Positions 2,325 through 31,239 of a DNA stretch of 64,000 bases are shown here, in pieces. The notes below the pieces were generated by a model. That model was not told the origin of the DNA. It searched no databases and saw only the letters and a program-made list of their open reading frames with translations. The DNA lies in IMG/VR virus record IMGVR_UViG_3300014775_002125, positions 66,965 to 130,964 of that record. The stretch is one strand, 5' to 3'. The position numbers and the translations under genes were made by a program. This DNA comes from a virus. Numbering within the stretch: the first letter of the stretch is position 1; every line of letters starts with the position of its first letter.

Positions 2325-4358
2325 ATGAATGAACCTATCTCAACTACAGACAAGATTTATCAGCAGCTTACTAGATTGTTTTCTGGTGGGCTGAATCTGT
2401 TAAATCGCCAAGGATACCACAACCAGCGAAGACAAGATCTAGATAAATACAGGAAAAAATATAAAGCAACAGACGGAAAACAGTACAAGTCTTATCGCTC
2501 TCCTATCTCTAAGCAGTGGCTAAACTATCAGCGGGAACAAGACAGGGCTGCTAGATACGGTGATTTTGATCGTATGGACTTCTACCCAGAAATCCATAAG
2601 GCACTGGACATCTATGCTGGGGAAATGACCACTGCTACGAGACTCAAACCTATCCTAGAGATTCGCTGTCAAAACGAAGAGATTAAATCAGCACTACACG
2701 ACCTTTTCTTTAACATTCTCAGCCTCGAACATAACCTATTTCCTTGGTGTCGTACTATGTGTAAATATGGGGACTTCATGGGTTACATTGAGACTGATCT
2801 AGATCTTGGAGTCACTGGCCTTATCCAGCTTCCTAACAGAGAAGTCGAGAGAATGGAAGGTGAGGACGAAAGCAATAGTAACTACGTACAGTATCAGTGG
2901 AATGGTGGCGGGTTAACCCTAGAGAAGTGGCAGGTGTTACATTTTCGGAACCTAGCCAGTGACAAACACTCTCCTTATGGGACCAGTGTGCTTGATGGTG
3001 TTCGTCAGATCTTTCGGCAGTTAGTCTTGCTCGAAGAAGCTATGATGACTTACAGGGTTGTTCGTTCCCCTGAGCGTCGTCTGTTTAAGATTGATGTAGG
3101 CAACATTCCTGATGACCAGATTGAACAGTACATGGAAGAGGTCATCACAAGCCTAAAGCGCAACCAGATCATTGATAGTGACACTGGACGGGTTGACCTA
3201 CGTTACAACCCACTAAGCGCAGAAGAAGATATCTATTTGCCCACCAGAGAAGGTTCACAGACTGAAGTTACAACCCTAGAGGGCGGTCAGTTTACTGGTG
3301 TTACAGATGATGTTGAGTACATTCTTGGCAAGCTAATGATGGGTATTGGGATTCCCGGAGCTTACCTACAACAAAAACAAGAGCTAGGTACTGATAAAGT
3401 TGCTCTGACTCAGAAAGATATTGAGTTTGCAAAGCACATTCAGAGACTACAGAGGCCAATCATTGAAGGTTTAAAAAACATTGCAATTACCCACTTGTAC
3501 ATTCTAGGCTATGAGGGCGAGGACCTAACGAACTTTGAGCTTTATCTTAATAACCCCTCAAAGATTGCTGAACTACAAGAGCTAGAGCACCTACGAACAA
3601 AGATGGATGTTGCTTCTAGTGCTTCTGATGCTCTTTTTCCCAAGAAGTGGATCTACAGGAACATCTTTGGGATGGCTGAAGAGGAAATTATCAGACATAC
3701 TCTTGGTAGATTCCATGACCGTAAAGTTGACCTTGCTCTAGAAGCTATTGATGGTGAAGGAGAAGACCTAGAAAGCATGGGTGCTGACAGTTTAGGTATG
3801 GGCGGTGACTTAGGTGGAGGAATGGGTGATGCTGGTGGTGATTTAGGAGATTTAGGAGATCTAGGTGACATTGCTGGCGGTGAAGAAGGTGGAGAGCCTA
3901 TGGACACTGGTGATGCTGGTGGTGATGCTGGTGGTGATACTGGTGGTGATACTGGTGGTGGCGACGAAGGAGGTCTCTTAGTCACTCCCGGTAAACGCCT
4001 TGAAAGGAAAGACTACAAATACACCAGAAAAGACGGGATGACAACGACCACTAAATCAAAGGGTAAATTCTATAAGCCAGTAGGAAAAGGTCAAGACAAA
4101 AGACAACACCTAATTCCTCAGAGAAAAGCTAACAAGCAATCTTACGGACACTATGCTTATGTAAGTCCGTCAAGAACCAACGTAATGAACTCTCTCCCAA
4201 GCGTTAAACATTCTCTACAAGGTGTTAAACCAGAGGGTGCCCTAAAAATAAGCATCAAAGAACAGGTTGAGAACTCTATTTATAACGAAGAAATTTTAAA
4301 AGAAAACCTTGAACTTGATGAGTTCCTTAAAGAAATTGAGAGAGTGATTGAAAAATGA
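2325..4358 (+). CDS. Portal protein (T4 gp20-like) with long Gly/Asp-rich C-terminal extension
   Basis: PYGTSVLD, YRVVRSPERRLFKIDVGNIP, TLEGGQ and DIEFAKHIQRLQ are gp20-type motifs; follows terminase. Confidence 0.92.
   Translation: MNEPISTTDKIYQQLTRLFSGGLNLLNRQGYHNQRRQDLDKYRKKYKATDGKQYKSYRSPISKQWLNYQREQDRAARYGDFDRMDFYPEIHKALDIYAGEMTTATRLKPILEIRCQNEEIKSALHDLFFNILSLEHNLFPWCRTMCKYGDFMGYIETDLDLGVTGLIQLPNREVERMEGEDESNSNYVQYQWNGGGLTLEKWQVLHFRNLASDKHSPYGTSVLDGVRQIFRQLVLLEEAMMTYRVVRSPERRLFKIDVGNIPDDQIEQYMEEVITSLKRNQIIDSDTGRVDLRYNPLSAEEDIYLPTREGSQTEVTTLEGGQFTGVTDDVEYILGKLMMGIGIPGAYLQQKQELGTDKVALTQKDIEFAKHIQRLQRPIIEGLKNIAITHLYILGYEGEDLTNFELYLNNPSKIAELQELEHLRTKMDVASSASDALFPKKWIYRNIFGMAEEEIIRHTLGRFHDRKVDLALEAIDGEGEDLESMGADSLGMGGDLGGGMGDAGGDLGDLGDLGDIAGGEEGGEPMDTGDAGGDAGGDTGGDTGGGDEGGLLVTPGKRLERKDYKYTRKDGMTTTTKSKGKFYKPVGKGQDKRQHLIPQRKANKQSYGHYAYVSPSRTNVMNSLPSVKHSLQGVKPEGALKISIKEQVENSIYNEEILKENLELDEFLKEIERVIEK
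3909..3956 (+). repeat. 12-bp tandem repeat GGTGAT(G/A)CTGGT x4 in the portal extension
   Basis: Read directly; encodes GDAG/GDTG repeats. Confidence 0.85.
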
Positions 4359-11081: not shown

Positions 11082-11114
11082 TATTTGACTACATAAAGAA
11101 CTAACAATTCTTTG

Positions 11115-11150
11115 AACCTCTTAGGCCTCTGGTCTAGGAGGTTTTTTTTT
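11115..11150 (+). terminator. Intrinsic terminator after capsid gene
   Basis: AACCTCTTAGGCC-TCT-GGTCTAGGAGGTT followed by a T run. Confidence 0.85.
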
Positions 11151-29062: not shown

Positions 29063-29229
29063 ATTTGAAGTTTTTTGGAAATTATTAGTCACTTTGTGGT
29101 ATGATTGAGGTTAAGAGAGAAGAACAACTGGTAGGACTTTGAATCTCTCTCTTAGCCTCTTTGTTTTGTAAGCATTCTTTTTGTTATGCTCTTAGTCATT
29201 TAGTAAGTATATTTTTTTTGTTTTTTTTG

Positions 29230-29258
29230 TTGACTTTTTGTTTCGGTTACTATATACT
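29230..29258 (+). promoter_or_regulatory. sigma70-type promoter for the SSB gene
   Basis: TTGACT-17-TATACT. Confidence 0.65.
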
Positions 29259-29315
29259 GGTTTTCAAGAGCAATGAGGCTCTTAGTTTTTTTTCATTTTT
29301 TTAGGAGGATTTATT

Positions 29316-30185
29316 ATGACTTTCATGGACAAACTCAAAGGACAGATGAACGCTGATCGGGCTAAACGAGAAACTGGAGGCTCCTCTGGTGGCGAAGGAA
29401 TCTTTTTGCGCCCCGACAAAGAGACCAAGAACTCTTTCCGTGTCCTTACGTTTCGAGACATCCCAATCTTCACCGATGTTTACTTCTACTGGTTGCATCA
29501 ACTGACTGAGAACAAGCGCACCCTGCTTTCTCCCAAAACCTTCGGAGAGTCACACAGAGGCGGCGATGTTTCTTACGACCTCTACAAGCGCATTCTGGAG
29601 TTTTACGGTGGCGACAAGAGTGCCATCAACAAGAACTCCCCGGAATGGAATCACTATCGTTCTTGTATGGAGTCTGCTTGTACTTTGATTCCCGGTTTCC
29701 TTAGAGATGAAGATGGGAACCCGGTTGATAGGAACTCTGATGGGTCTCCTGCAATCAAATTTCTCAAGCTATCGAACACTGCTATGGAGTCTATTGTTAG
29801 TGGCCTTGCAGATGCTGAAGAAGACAGTGGTATTGACAATCCTTTCTGCGCTAAGAAGGGTGTTGACATCACTATCCGCTGGGCTTCAAAGGGTCAATAT
29901 AGCGGTGAGTGGAAGATGAGCGTACAGCAGAAGTCTAAAAAAGCGATGGATGACCTCAAGCTCTACCAAAAGACTTGTGATAAACTTGCTGAGATGTTTG
30001 CTGATGGTGATGAAGGTTTGAAGGAACTCTTTGACTATGAGACACCTGAGAATCTCGTTCCATACCTCAAGGCTTACGCGAAGAATTCTCCGATGCTTGA
30101 CGTTGCCTCTGAAGGTGCTGCTAGTGTTGGAACCCCTCGACAGCCTCACGTAGAAGCTATGGATGACTCGGACGTTCCCTTTTAA
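29316..30185 (+). CDS. Single-stranded DNA-binding protein (gp32-like)
   Basis: LLSPKTFGE, GVDITI, acidic tail MDDSDVPF. Confidence 0.7.
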   Translation: MTFMDKLKGQMNADRAKRETGGSSGGEGIFLRPDKETKNSFRVLTFRDIPIFTDVYFYWLHQLTENKRTLLSPKTFGESHRGGDVSYDLYKRILEFYGGDKSAINKNSPEWNHYRSCMESACTLIPGFLRDEDGNPVDRNSDGSPAIKFLKLSNTAMESIVSGLADAEEDSGIDNPFCAKKGVDITIRWASKGQYSGEWKMSVQQKSKKAMDDLKLYQKTCDKLAEMFADGDEGLKELFDYETPENLVPYLKAYAKNSPMLDVASEGAASVGTPRQPHVEAMDDSDVPF

Positions 30186-30199
30186 TTAACTAACAGCCC

Positions 30200-30292
30200 T
30201 CTTTGAGAGGGCTAACAGGGGATTAAGAGCAGAGCGTCCTCCTCCTACGCTATCCTCCACTGCTTTTAGTCTCCTGTTAGCTCTCTCAGAGA
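30200..30292 (+). ncRNA. Structured RNA element: 33-bp stem with anti-SD (CCUCC) loops
   Basis: 30200-30232 pairs with 30260-30292 with five G-U pairs; internal AGCGT-CCTCCTCCT-ACGCT hairpin. Confidence 0.6.
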
Positions 30293-30309
30293 AACATGGA
30301 GGAGATAAG

Positions 30310-30510
30310 ATGAACTTTGAAAATTATGTAGATAGTATTGTAGAGAAGCTGGACGAAACAAACCATCCCATTCAAACTTTATTCAAAACTCAGAACGAAG
30401 CTATGGACTTCCTTGTAGAGCGTTATGAGTCTGAGACTACTGTAGAAGACACTGTTCGGGCAGCTTTGCTTAGGGTGGTTTCGATTGATAGTGTAGGAGT
30501 AGAGCAATGA
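30310..30510 (+). CDS. Hypothetical protein
   Basis: GGAGGAG RBS; coupled to the next ORF. Confidence 0.6.
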   Translation: MNFENYVDSIVEKLDETNHPIQTLFKTQNEAMDFLVERYESETTVEDTVRAALLRVVSIDSVGVEQ

Positions 30511-30782
30511 AAGATTTCAACTACCGCACTAAAGAATACACCGTCAAAGCACTGGAATACAACAAAGACACCTACAGAGAGGTTGTGAAGTGGCTTGAAG
30601 CAGCAGAAGTGAAACATGAGTTCAATAGGTTTTCATACGAACTCAAGGTCCTCACGGTAGATGGAATCAAGAAAGCAACCTTCGAGTATCCCATGGTTAT
30701 CGTTGAACGAGACACTGGGAGTTTTAACCTGTGGACTAAAGAAGGTTTCAATCGCACCTTCACAACTACAAGAGGTTCGTAA
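30507..30782 (+). CDS. Hypothetical protein
   Basis: Overlapping start/stop chain. Confidence 0.55.
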   Translation: MKDFNYRTKEYTVKALEYNKDTYREVVKWLEAAEVKHEFNRFSYELKVLTVDGIKKATFEYPMVIVERDTGSFNLWTKEGFNRTFTTTRGS

Positions 30783-31006
30783 TGGAATGCTTTGAGATTG
30801 TCAGTGGGCGGAAAGATTACATCGGCAAGAAGGTCAAACTGGTAGAGGAACTAGGCTATGGAATGCTCAAAGTACGAGACTGGAATGACACCGTTTTTAA
30901 AATCCATAGAGATGATGTCAAACCAACAGTCCCTTTCAGAACTCGTAGAGAGATTACAAGCGGACTCTCAGACCCCATTGCAGTTCCTGAGAATGACGCG
31001 CAATGA
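30782..31006 (+). CDS. Small hypothetical protein (SH3-like)
   Basis: TAATG coupling; beta-rich pattern. Confidence 0.5.
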   Translation: MECFEIVSGRKDYIGKKVKLVEELGYGMLKVRDWNDTVFKIHRDDVKPTVPFRTRREITSGLSDPIAVPENDAQ

Positions 31007-31164
31007 TTGGAGCCATCAGTACTATTTGGTCCACGGTGATGGCTACTACGAGATTTGCCCTAAGCTGTTTCGGAGTCTAGTTTATAAAGGTTATTTCAAA
31101 CTAGAGTACTTACAGGACTACAATAAAAACGAATATGTTCTAATCAAACCACTAAGCGTTTGAC

Positions 31165-31200
31165 AAAAAGCTCAGGGAATTAACTCTGAGCTTTTTTTTT
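31165..31200 (+). terminator. Intrinsic, possibly bidirectional, terminator
   Basis: AAAAAGCTCAGGG-AATTAA-CTCTGAGCTTTTTTTTT. Confidence 0.85.
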
Positions 31201-31210
31201 GAACTAAGGC

Positions 31211-31239
31211 TTGACAATGCCTCAGAGAACTGCTAGAGT
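31211..31239 (+). promoter_or_regulatory. sigma70-type promoter
   Basis: TTGACA-17-TAGAGT. Confidence 0.65.

Follow-up and report, generated by a model that had tools for sequence, protein, structure and literature searches.

What role is played by a long RNA hairpin that follows the gene for a probable single-stranded DNA-binding protein (SSB) in a phage message and exposes, at its tip, two copies of the anti-Shine-Dalgarno (anti-SD) core of 16S ribosomal RNA (rRNA)? This question is raised by a hairpin at positions 30200-30292 of the window, the stretch of 64,000 nucleotides (nt) analysed herein, which represents the right-hand 64 kilobases (kb; record positions 66,965-130,964) of the IMG/VR record IMGVR_UViG_3300014775_002125 (130,964 bases in total) from an uncultured large phage. 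As judged by sequence comparison and computed folds, the hairpin is real and unusual as an RNA structure, it has been maintained in evolution, and its anti-SD loops are sequence-specific. For its function we tentatively propose, short of real confidence, that it is a Shine-Dalgarno (SD)-masking RNA, of which the tip motifs would pair with GGAGG-type sites and lower their use.

Predicted structure of the hairpin

A reading of this DNA from the sequence alone (the original prediction) had described a stem of 33 base pairs (bp) with five G-U pairs and no mismatch, and exactly such a stem was found both in the list of pairs (33 consecutive pairs, 5 G-U, 0 mismatch) and in the structure given by RNAfold. 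The 27 nt between the two arms read AGCGU, CCUCCUCCU, ACGCU and AUCCUCCA in this order. The predicted sub-hairpin and the second anti-SD-like motif are both present in this tip: AGCGU and ACGCU form a 5-bp helix, the only paired part of the tip in the RNAfold structure, and both motifs stay open, one in the 9-nt loop and the other in the 8-nt bulge. The sub-hairpin stacks on the main stem, giving a coaxial helix of 38 bp (33 bp plus 5 bp). The probability of being unpaired was 1.00 for loop and bulge in folding contexts of 500 nt and 1256 nt, and 0.91-1.00 overall. The stem begins 14 nt past the UAA stop codon of the SSB-like gene, and 5 nt past its end starts GGAGGAG, the SD sequence of the next open reading frame (ORF), which thus lies outside the stem. 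No credible ORF for a peptide was found within the hairpin.

The hairpin is far more stable than expected from its composition, the minimum free energy being -61.6 kcal/mol as compared with -35.5 +/- 3.9 kcal/mol for shuffled sequences (z -6.65; 0 of 200 shuffles as good). When uninterrupted stems (G-U allowed, loops of 3-60 nt) were scanned on both strands of the whole record, it was the longest of all, the runners-up having 19 and 17 pairs; the second-longest stem of the genome, located outside the window (G000:C1:56076-56134), consists of 19 pairs including 2 G-U pairs and closes a 21-nt loop. Among 52 plus-strand CCTCC sites of the genome, the sole triple cluster is that of this hairpin. 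No further copy was detected in the same genome by DNA search, stem scan or survey of intergenic anti-SD-like 5-mers, none of the latter being located within a comparable structure. One C-rich intergenic tract with two CCUCC/CCCUCC motifs was noticed at G000:C1:61500-61560 (window -5464 to -5404), upstream of a promoter-like TTGTCA; it is unstructured.

The original prediction had also claimed that selection acts on RNA rather than on DNA structure; selection on a single-stranded fold of the plus strand is supported by the G-U-only wobbles, the strand-specific fold and the covariation in a relative described below. The five positions that depart from Watson-Crick pairing are all G-U when the plus strand is read and would be A-C on the minus strand, and the folding strand is the sense strand for every neighbouring gene. 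The reverse complement folded at -42.6 kcal/mol (z -1.39), a value reached by 25 of 200 shuffles. Since the minus strand is no better than its shuffles, a plus-strand structure, most likely RNA, appears to be under selection; what is selected is most likely the single-stranded fold of the plus strand, RNA being the economical reading.

No Rfam family matched the window at the gathering score. At E up to 10, the segment 30100-30400 gave 14 matches, of which the hairpin itself accounted only for sub-threshold miRNA-precursor models, as expected of a generic long hairpin; the best of these was mir-641 with 31.6 bits against a required 100.

Conservation and covariation in a relative

A metagenome scan yielded one locus with DNA, designated L002, of which the SSB is 86% identical to that of the window. 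Scanning of viral contigs with the SSB protein gave 0 relatives with the single protein and 0 with a 5-sequence alignment, scanning of genome contigs gave 0 relatives, and phage records gave 0 matches by tblastn of P0003 or blastn of 29316-31200. L002 is a mosaic relative: the genes upstream are 95-98% identical (91-94% at their four-fold sites), the SSB gene is only 55% identical at its four-fold sites (57/103), and the downstream gene of 91 amino acids (aa) is 44% identical.

At the corresponding place in L002, 16 nt past the stop codon, there is a hairpin with -56.6 kcal/mol and z -6.05 (0 of 200 shuffles as good), and the minus strand of L002 gives z -1.68. Among 32 aligned stem pairs, 18 are invariant, 6 show one-sided and 6 two-sided changes with pairing kept in both cases, and 2 are broken, the latter being adjacent U-U/U-U positions that split the L002 stem into 25 bp and 6 bp with a 2x2 internal loop of U-U in between. 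The paired cells amount to 96.9%, in contrast to 43-59% when the partners were slid by 1-3 columns, and the slid versions show only 0-1 two-sided changes; the shuffle control for covariation between two sequences was low in power (10/500). In one 3-bp block the arms are swapped between the window and L002, and a one-nucleotide loss in one arm is matched by one in the other, the stem spanning 33 positions in both phages. The 5 G-U pairs of L002 stand mostly at other positions than those of the window, again without A-C. As read from the two sequences, the sub-hairpin AGCGU/ACGCU has become UGCGA/UCGCA in L002 with both outer pairs flipped; the minimum-energy fold of L002 pairs only four of these five (GCGA/UCGC), the outer U joining a G of the main stem.

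The open parts behave differently from the arms, and they also stand out from the neutral background given by the four-fold sites of the adjacent SSB gene, which are 55% identical. The bulge AUCCUCCA is identical in L002 at 8 of 8 positions, and the L002 loop, which reads CGUCCUCCUU, retains UCCUCCU. In addition, the 13-nt run around the SD, GAAACAUGGAGGA, is identical in L002 although the following gene differs, and in both phages the SD follows the stem at a distance of 5 nt; the stem itself begins 14 nt (window) or 16 nt (L002) past the stop codon. Arms that vary while pairing is retained, combined with invariant loops, form the pattern expected of a functional RNA with sequence-specific loops. 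A lack of conservation or covariation in relatives was named in the original prediction as what would speak against it; the single relative found keeps both the fold and the two CCUCC motifs.

Pattern scans of viral contigs, employing the loop motifs plus the conserved 3′ run, gave 1, 3 and 0 matches, and the four loci concerned (L003-L006) turned out to be unrelated sequence without a hairpin. A pattern scan of genome contigs gave 40 matches; after scoring of all by fold and viewing of the top 10, none was inside a long stem, and we regard them as chance.

Candidate targets of the tip motifs

In the proposed SD-masking function, the rigid stem of 33-38 bp would present its two single-stranded copies of the 16S anti-SD core to SD sequences elsewhere. 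One candidate partner, located on the same mRNA about 900 nt upstream, is the SD of the SSB gene itself (AGGAGGA), to be reached by a 3′-to-5′ contact as in icaR (see below); the apical loop is predicted to pair with it at -12.8 kcal/mol (UCCUCCUA against UAGGAGGA, 8 nt) and the bulge at -12.0 kcal/mol (AUCCUCC against GGAGGAU, 7 nt). Other candidates are the strong ribosome-binding sites on mRNAs of other early or replication genes. When the starts of 137 ORFs were compared, 34 reached a predicted duplex energy with the loop of -10 kcal/mol or better, and these are distributed unevenly, 28 of 61 ORFs in the replication/early half (24037-64000) versus 6 of 76 elsewhere. The phage thus seems to hold two classes of genes with respect to translation initiation. 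The long perfect duplex would be a natural substrate for host RNase III, and the cut would leave SSB and the small genes downstream of it on separate messages and could free the tip as a small hairpin RNA. Pairing with ribosome-binding sites, cleavage by RNase III and the effect on translation are steps that we infer.

The SD of the adjacent gene had been predicted to be complementary to the loop motifs, and this was confirmed (predicted duplex, -14.2 kcal/mol for the loop and -11.9 kcal/mol for the bulge). The pseudoknot in cis that had been proposed from it, between the apical CCUCC and this GGAGGAG, is however sterically implausible as long as the stem stands. In A-form geometry a base pair contributes about 2.8 Å and a free nucleotide about 6 Å; by this measure, the linker to the SD would reach about 30 Å, in contrast to about 90-105 Å for the helix of 33-38 bp. 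With its tether of only 5 nt to the stem base, the adjacent SD is unlikely to serve as a partner.

Several points weigh against the SD-masking function. RNase III might do no more than degrade the 33-bp duplex. In duplex energy the adjacent SD is the 5th and the SSB SD the 11th of the 137 starts; complementarity to GGAGG is generic and therefore indicates no specific target. The SD sites are identical in both phages, and therefore no covariation between loop and target is observed. The comparison rests on two sequences only, the SSB clade of 52% identity (P0003, P0004, P0005) being outside it. The plus strand folds significantly with DNA parameters as well (-27.4 kcal/mol, z -4.72). A point in favour is that, in the RNA-labelled library X3, a 1034-nt contig (29303-30336) spans the SSB gene and the hairpin, but such sequencing contigs cannot show RNA ends, and with flat depth across the promoter and the genes, carry-over of DNA is possible. 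In the contigs of run X9, 29612-30297 is without cover, to which no conclusion is attached.

Alternative roles of the hairpin

The main rival, conceivable albeit unlikely, is that the hairpin serves purely for processing or stability of the message: as a place of RNase III cleavage between cistrons and/or an obstacle to 3′ exonucleases, it would uncouple the abundance of the SSB message from that of the downstream genes; the CCUCC loops would then be kept for another reason, for instance recognition by a nuclease or a protein. The classical analogues are the intercistronic RNase III hairpins of phage early mRNAs, such as the T7 R-sites, the lambda N leader and sib, and the T7 sites contain an internal loop that directs a single cut. 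The hairpin resembles them as a long duplex between cistrons of one phage operon without terminator function, and a continuous duplex of at least about 20 bp within a transcript, a feature of RNase III sites, is present (33 bp uninterrupted, plus 5 bp). The matched losses in the two arms, by which the 33-position span is kept, agree as well with such a role. It differs from the T7 and lambda sites in that the window stem is uninterrupted, lacking an internal loop of the T7 type, in that it carries conserved sequence-specific loops, and in that it is unique in the genome; a single such stem in 131 kb is no general punctuation device of the phage. The processing role gives no account of unchanged open loops next to arms that differ at 14 of 32 pairs. 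A processing event near an SSB gene would have a counterpart in phage T4, where the gene 32 mRNA is described as unusually stable and cut near its stop codon by RNase E (PMC3014915).

We consider it improbable that the tip, after excision by RNase III, is a free anti-SD RNA made by the phage, which with its two sites would titrate the GGAGG sites of early and replication genes and shift translation from early to late. Such an RNA would accumulate alongside SSB and provide a class-wide temporal switch at the step of ribosome binding.

About equally doubtful is a switch in cis for the adjacent gene. According to this model, formation of the small hairpin 30195-30213 would set the 3′ arm free, CUCUCUC (30281-30287) would pair with GGAGGAG and the next gene would be turned off, the balance between the small hairpin and the long stem being tipped by ribosomes finishing SSB 9 nt upstream. 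The small hairpin, which cannot coexist with the base of the long stem, had been noted in the original prediction and does exist; it overlaps the 5′ arm by 14 nt, and an equivalent is present in L002 with one two-sided change, G-C to A-U. Both alternatives are hence available in both phages, with nearly constant spacings to stop codon and SD. When the small hairpin was forced, the SD of the window indeed paired with the freed part of the 3′ arm, and L002 gave a similar small helix. Thus the part of the original prediction that two alternative folds exist stands, but the alternative is much less stable, by 12.0 kcal/mol in the window and 9.8 kcal/mol in L002, and the SD pairs with the 3′ arm and not with the loops. 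In folds of the growing transcript, the small hairpin formed first and was displaced by the long stem once 30286 had been reached, that is, as soon as the 3′ arm is made. The switch also gives no role to the unchanged loops, and the gene it would regulate is not conserved, a 66-aa ORF being present here versus the 91-aa gene in L002. In longer folding contexts the partners of the SD were inconsistent in the window and weak in L002 (pairing probability of about 0.23 or less per base), where the SD is mostly free; sequestration of the SD by the flanking SSB coding sequence was likewise discarded, as the partners shift with the folded context and are weak in L002.

The cis-acting hairpins of the T4 genes e, soc, 49 and I-TevI, described as setting RNA structure against the ribosome-binding site (PMC3014915), differ from the present one in having the SD or AUG within the helix, whereas here the SD is outside and the motifs are about 100 Å away. 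The class of SD-sequestering cis hairpins was rejected on this ground for the present element. A hairpin of the SD-sequestering type was noticed elsewhere in the window, at 11114-11144 (14 bp, 3-nt loop), its 3′ arm including AGGAGG paired with AACCUCUU.

A role as single-stranded DNA, for instance as a priming or helicase-loading signal for replication, is very improbable. It is still compatible with folding because the plus strand is significant under DNA parameters too, and the hairpin lies in a cluster of replication genes, its neighbours encoding SSB, a 5′-3′ exonuclease and a DnaB-type helicase. In contrast, G-T wobbles are weak in DNA, neither flanking repeats nor an AT-rich unwinding region is present (surrounding GC content, 0.42-0.51), the folding strand is the sense strand of all neighbouring genes, and the unchanged CCUCC motifs with the adjoining conserved SD point to translation. 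Least of all do we expect a decoy of the 16S rRNA 3′ end, in which the AUC-CUCC motifs would bind a protein recognising the 16S tail (assembly factor, nuclease or toxin): two copies are displayed on a rigid scaffold, and the bulge AUCCUCCA and the loop resemble the 16S rRNA end ...AUCACCUCCUUA, but the motif is without the A of AUCACCUCC.

Organization of the operon

The window is nearly all plus-coded (ATG-started ORFs of at least 80 aa, 129 on the plus and 23 on the minus strand). As judged by consensus scans and reading of the sequence, the hairpin is inside an operon with the order promoter, SSB-like gene, hairpin, four small genes and terminator (Table 1). No plus-strand promoter-like site was found between 29317 and 31095 by the consensus scan, and another promoter-like site is located past the terminator, at 31211-31239. 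The lack of a U-tail, as noted in the original prediction, holds: the stem is followed by AACAUGGAGG and no U-run, and no plus-strand terminator-like site is listed there. Since it has no U-run, the hairpin is not the terminator of the operon, and the terminator reading was abandoned. Canonical terminators are in use elsewhere in the phage, at 31165-31200 and probably, as a hairpin with a U-rich tail, at 29107-29170.

In L002 the hairpin and the SD directly precede the homologue of the 91-aa gene. Since the 66-aa ORF is missing there while hairpin and SD are kept, the element travels with the 3′ end of the SSB gene and the SD rather than with any one of the genes that follow. Gain or loss of the 66-aa ORF has taken place precisely in the interval from the conserved SD to the 91-aa gene. 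A mini-ORF of 5 codons was noticed at 30296-30313, of which the AUG lies inside GAAACAUGGAGGA and the UGA overlaps the AUG of the next gene; it is also found in L002 (about 3982-3999), and its AUG is abolished by a variant (30297 T to C) of run X3.

Table 1. Features of the SSB operon and of the intercistronic hairpin (window coordinates).
Feature	Position	Strand	Evidence or remark
Sigma-70-like promoter, TTGACT-17-TATACT; operon start	29230..29258	+	Consensus scan, 10/12; same promoter and leader in L002
SD of the SSB-like gene (AGGAGGA); candidate for long-range pairing with the loops	29303..29309	+	Sequence; identical in L002
Gene for a probable gp32-like single-strand DNA-binding protein, 289 aa	29316..30185	+	ORF, profile and ESM Atlas matches, homologues P0001-P0004
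Small hairpin, 8 bp, 3-nt loop; excludes the base of the long stem	30195..30213	+	-12.3 kcal/mol
5′ arm of the 33-bp stem, purine-rich	30200..30232	+	RNAfold, repeat search, stem scan, covariation
Apical sub-hairpin, 5 bp, with the 9-nt loop CCUCCUCCU at 30238-30246	30233..30251	+	RNAfold
Bulge AUCCUCCA, 8 nt on the 3′ side; second anti-SD motif	30252..30259	+	RNAfold
3′ arm of the 33-bp stem, pyrimidine-rich	30260..30292	+	RNAfold, repeat search, stem scan, covariation
GAAACAUGGAGGA (30291-30303) and next-gene SD GGAGGAG (30298-30304)	30291..30304	+	Alignment columns 109-121 identical in L002
ORF of 66 aa served by GGAGGAG; start codon at 30310	30310..30510	+	ORF; absent from L002
Canonical intrinsic terminator (A-tract, 6-bp GC-containing stem, U9); operon end	31165..31200	+	Read from sequence

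The promoter and leader of the SSB gene form a cassette (29230-29315) composed of TTGACT-17-TATACT, a 6-bp hairpin (29266-29283), a U-rich unstructured stretch and AGGAGGA, a layout of structure followed by an unstructured U-rich ribosome-binding region that recalls the operator of T4 gene 32. In L002 the cassette occurs twice (about 2440-2533 and 2906-3000), and a further gene, of 123 aa, is driven by the extra copy. Sequencing depth spikes at 29201-29267, by about 10-fold or more in runs X3 and X9 and by about 3-4-fold in runs X1 and X4, and loose ends are numerous; the segment is therefore probably repeated or widely shared. Upstream of the cassette, after the hsp20 gene, a 14-bp hairpin with a 25-nt loop (29107-29170) is followed by UUUGUUUUGU and is probably a terminator; its L002 version has diverged and still forms the arms.

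The SSB-like protein

The label of SSB gene is weakly supported. The protein carries an acidic C-terminal tail (...DDSDVPF), and 29 of 30 feature matches in the ESM Atlas were clusters labelled SSB or gp32. Pfam and PHROG gave no match at default cut-offs, and PF08804 (gp32) was detected below the threshold in 3 of 5 family members (best E 0.037; 14.5 bits against the cut-off of 26.8). The resemblance to gp32 thus appears only at sub-threshold level or in language-model features. The AlphaFold model was of low quality (pLDDT 36), and a sequence search of the PDB gave nothing meaningful. Four cluster-level homologues (97, 86, 52 and 52% identity) were found among 5.8 billion proteins, and the cluster listing contains 15 member proteins (P0001-P0015) on other contigs; a profile search against 1.84 billion cluster representatives recovered only its own 50% cluster, the protein being nearly an orphan.

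Comparison with known anti-SD RNAs

The cuckoo RNAs of Alphaproteobacteria (CcsR1-4/RSs0680a-d, alpha-r14 and NfeR1) are described as exposing the anti-SD-like CCUCCUCC in hairpin loops that are open, the sequence of the stems varying by compensatory exchanges, and occlusion of ribosome-binding sites has been proposed for them (PMC4615179). The window loop CCUCCUCCU agrees with the cuckoo loop CCUCCUCCC at 8 of 9 positions, and the logic of variable stems is common to both. The architecture is however different: cuckoo RNAs are free-standing small-RNA genes with 2-4 adjacent hairpins of 24-50 nt, each with a CCUCCUCCC loop (PMC4615179), whereas the phage element is one 93-nt hairpin inside an mRNA, with one 19-nt apical sub-hairpin on a 33-bp stem. 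Its second motif is in a bulge and not in a hairpin loop, the L002 loop reads CGUCCUCCUU, and neither a promoter nor a terminator of its own was indicated by consensus scans. The models for cuckoo, ar14 and CcsR1 were absent from the 14 Rfam matches at E up to 10 on 30100-30400. Membership in the cuckoo family was hence rejected on architecture, gene autonomy and covariance-model match.

The closest mechanistic precedents, by analogy, appear to be two contacts between untranslated regions (UTRs). In Staphylococcus aureus, an anti-SD motif in the icaR 3′UTR is described as pairing with the SD of its own mRNA, by which initiation is blocked and a substrate for RNase III is created (PMC3868564), and a 14-bp contact that joins the 5′UTR to the 3′UTR is described for hbs of Bacillus subtilis (PMC5737220). 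The phage hairpin resembles icaR in having a single-stranded motif past the stop codon that is complementary, by predicted pairing, to the SD of the same mRNA. It differs in sequence, CCUCC as compared with UCCCCUG in icaR, and in placement, the motif being present twice on a very long stem in an intercistronic spacer that is followed by further genes.

Within phages, the T4 gene 32 message is described as translationally autoregulated via a 5′ operator (PMC3014915), which is unlike the anti-SD display proposed here. No anti-SD display of a phage after ssb was found by full-text searching of the literature, as judged by titles and the openings of abstracts. RNAs of bacteria and phages displaying the docking sequence of the ribosome are known only as free-standing small RNAs (the cuckoo and C-rich-loop types) or as a few 3′UTR motifs such as that of icaR. 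A conserved and covarying anti-SD display inside the message for a phage replication protein would, if true, be a new way of tuning or timing the translation of whole gene classes, and it would connect the supply of SSB with the control of translation by other means than the operator of T4 gp32.

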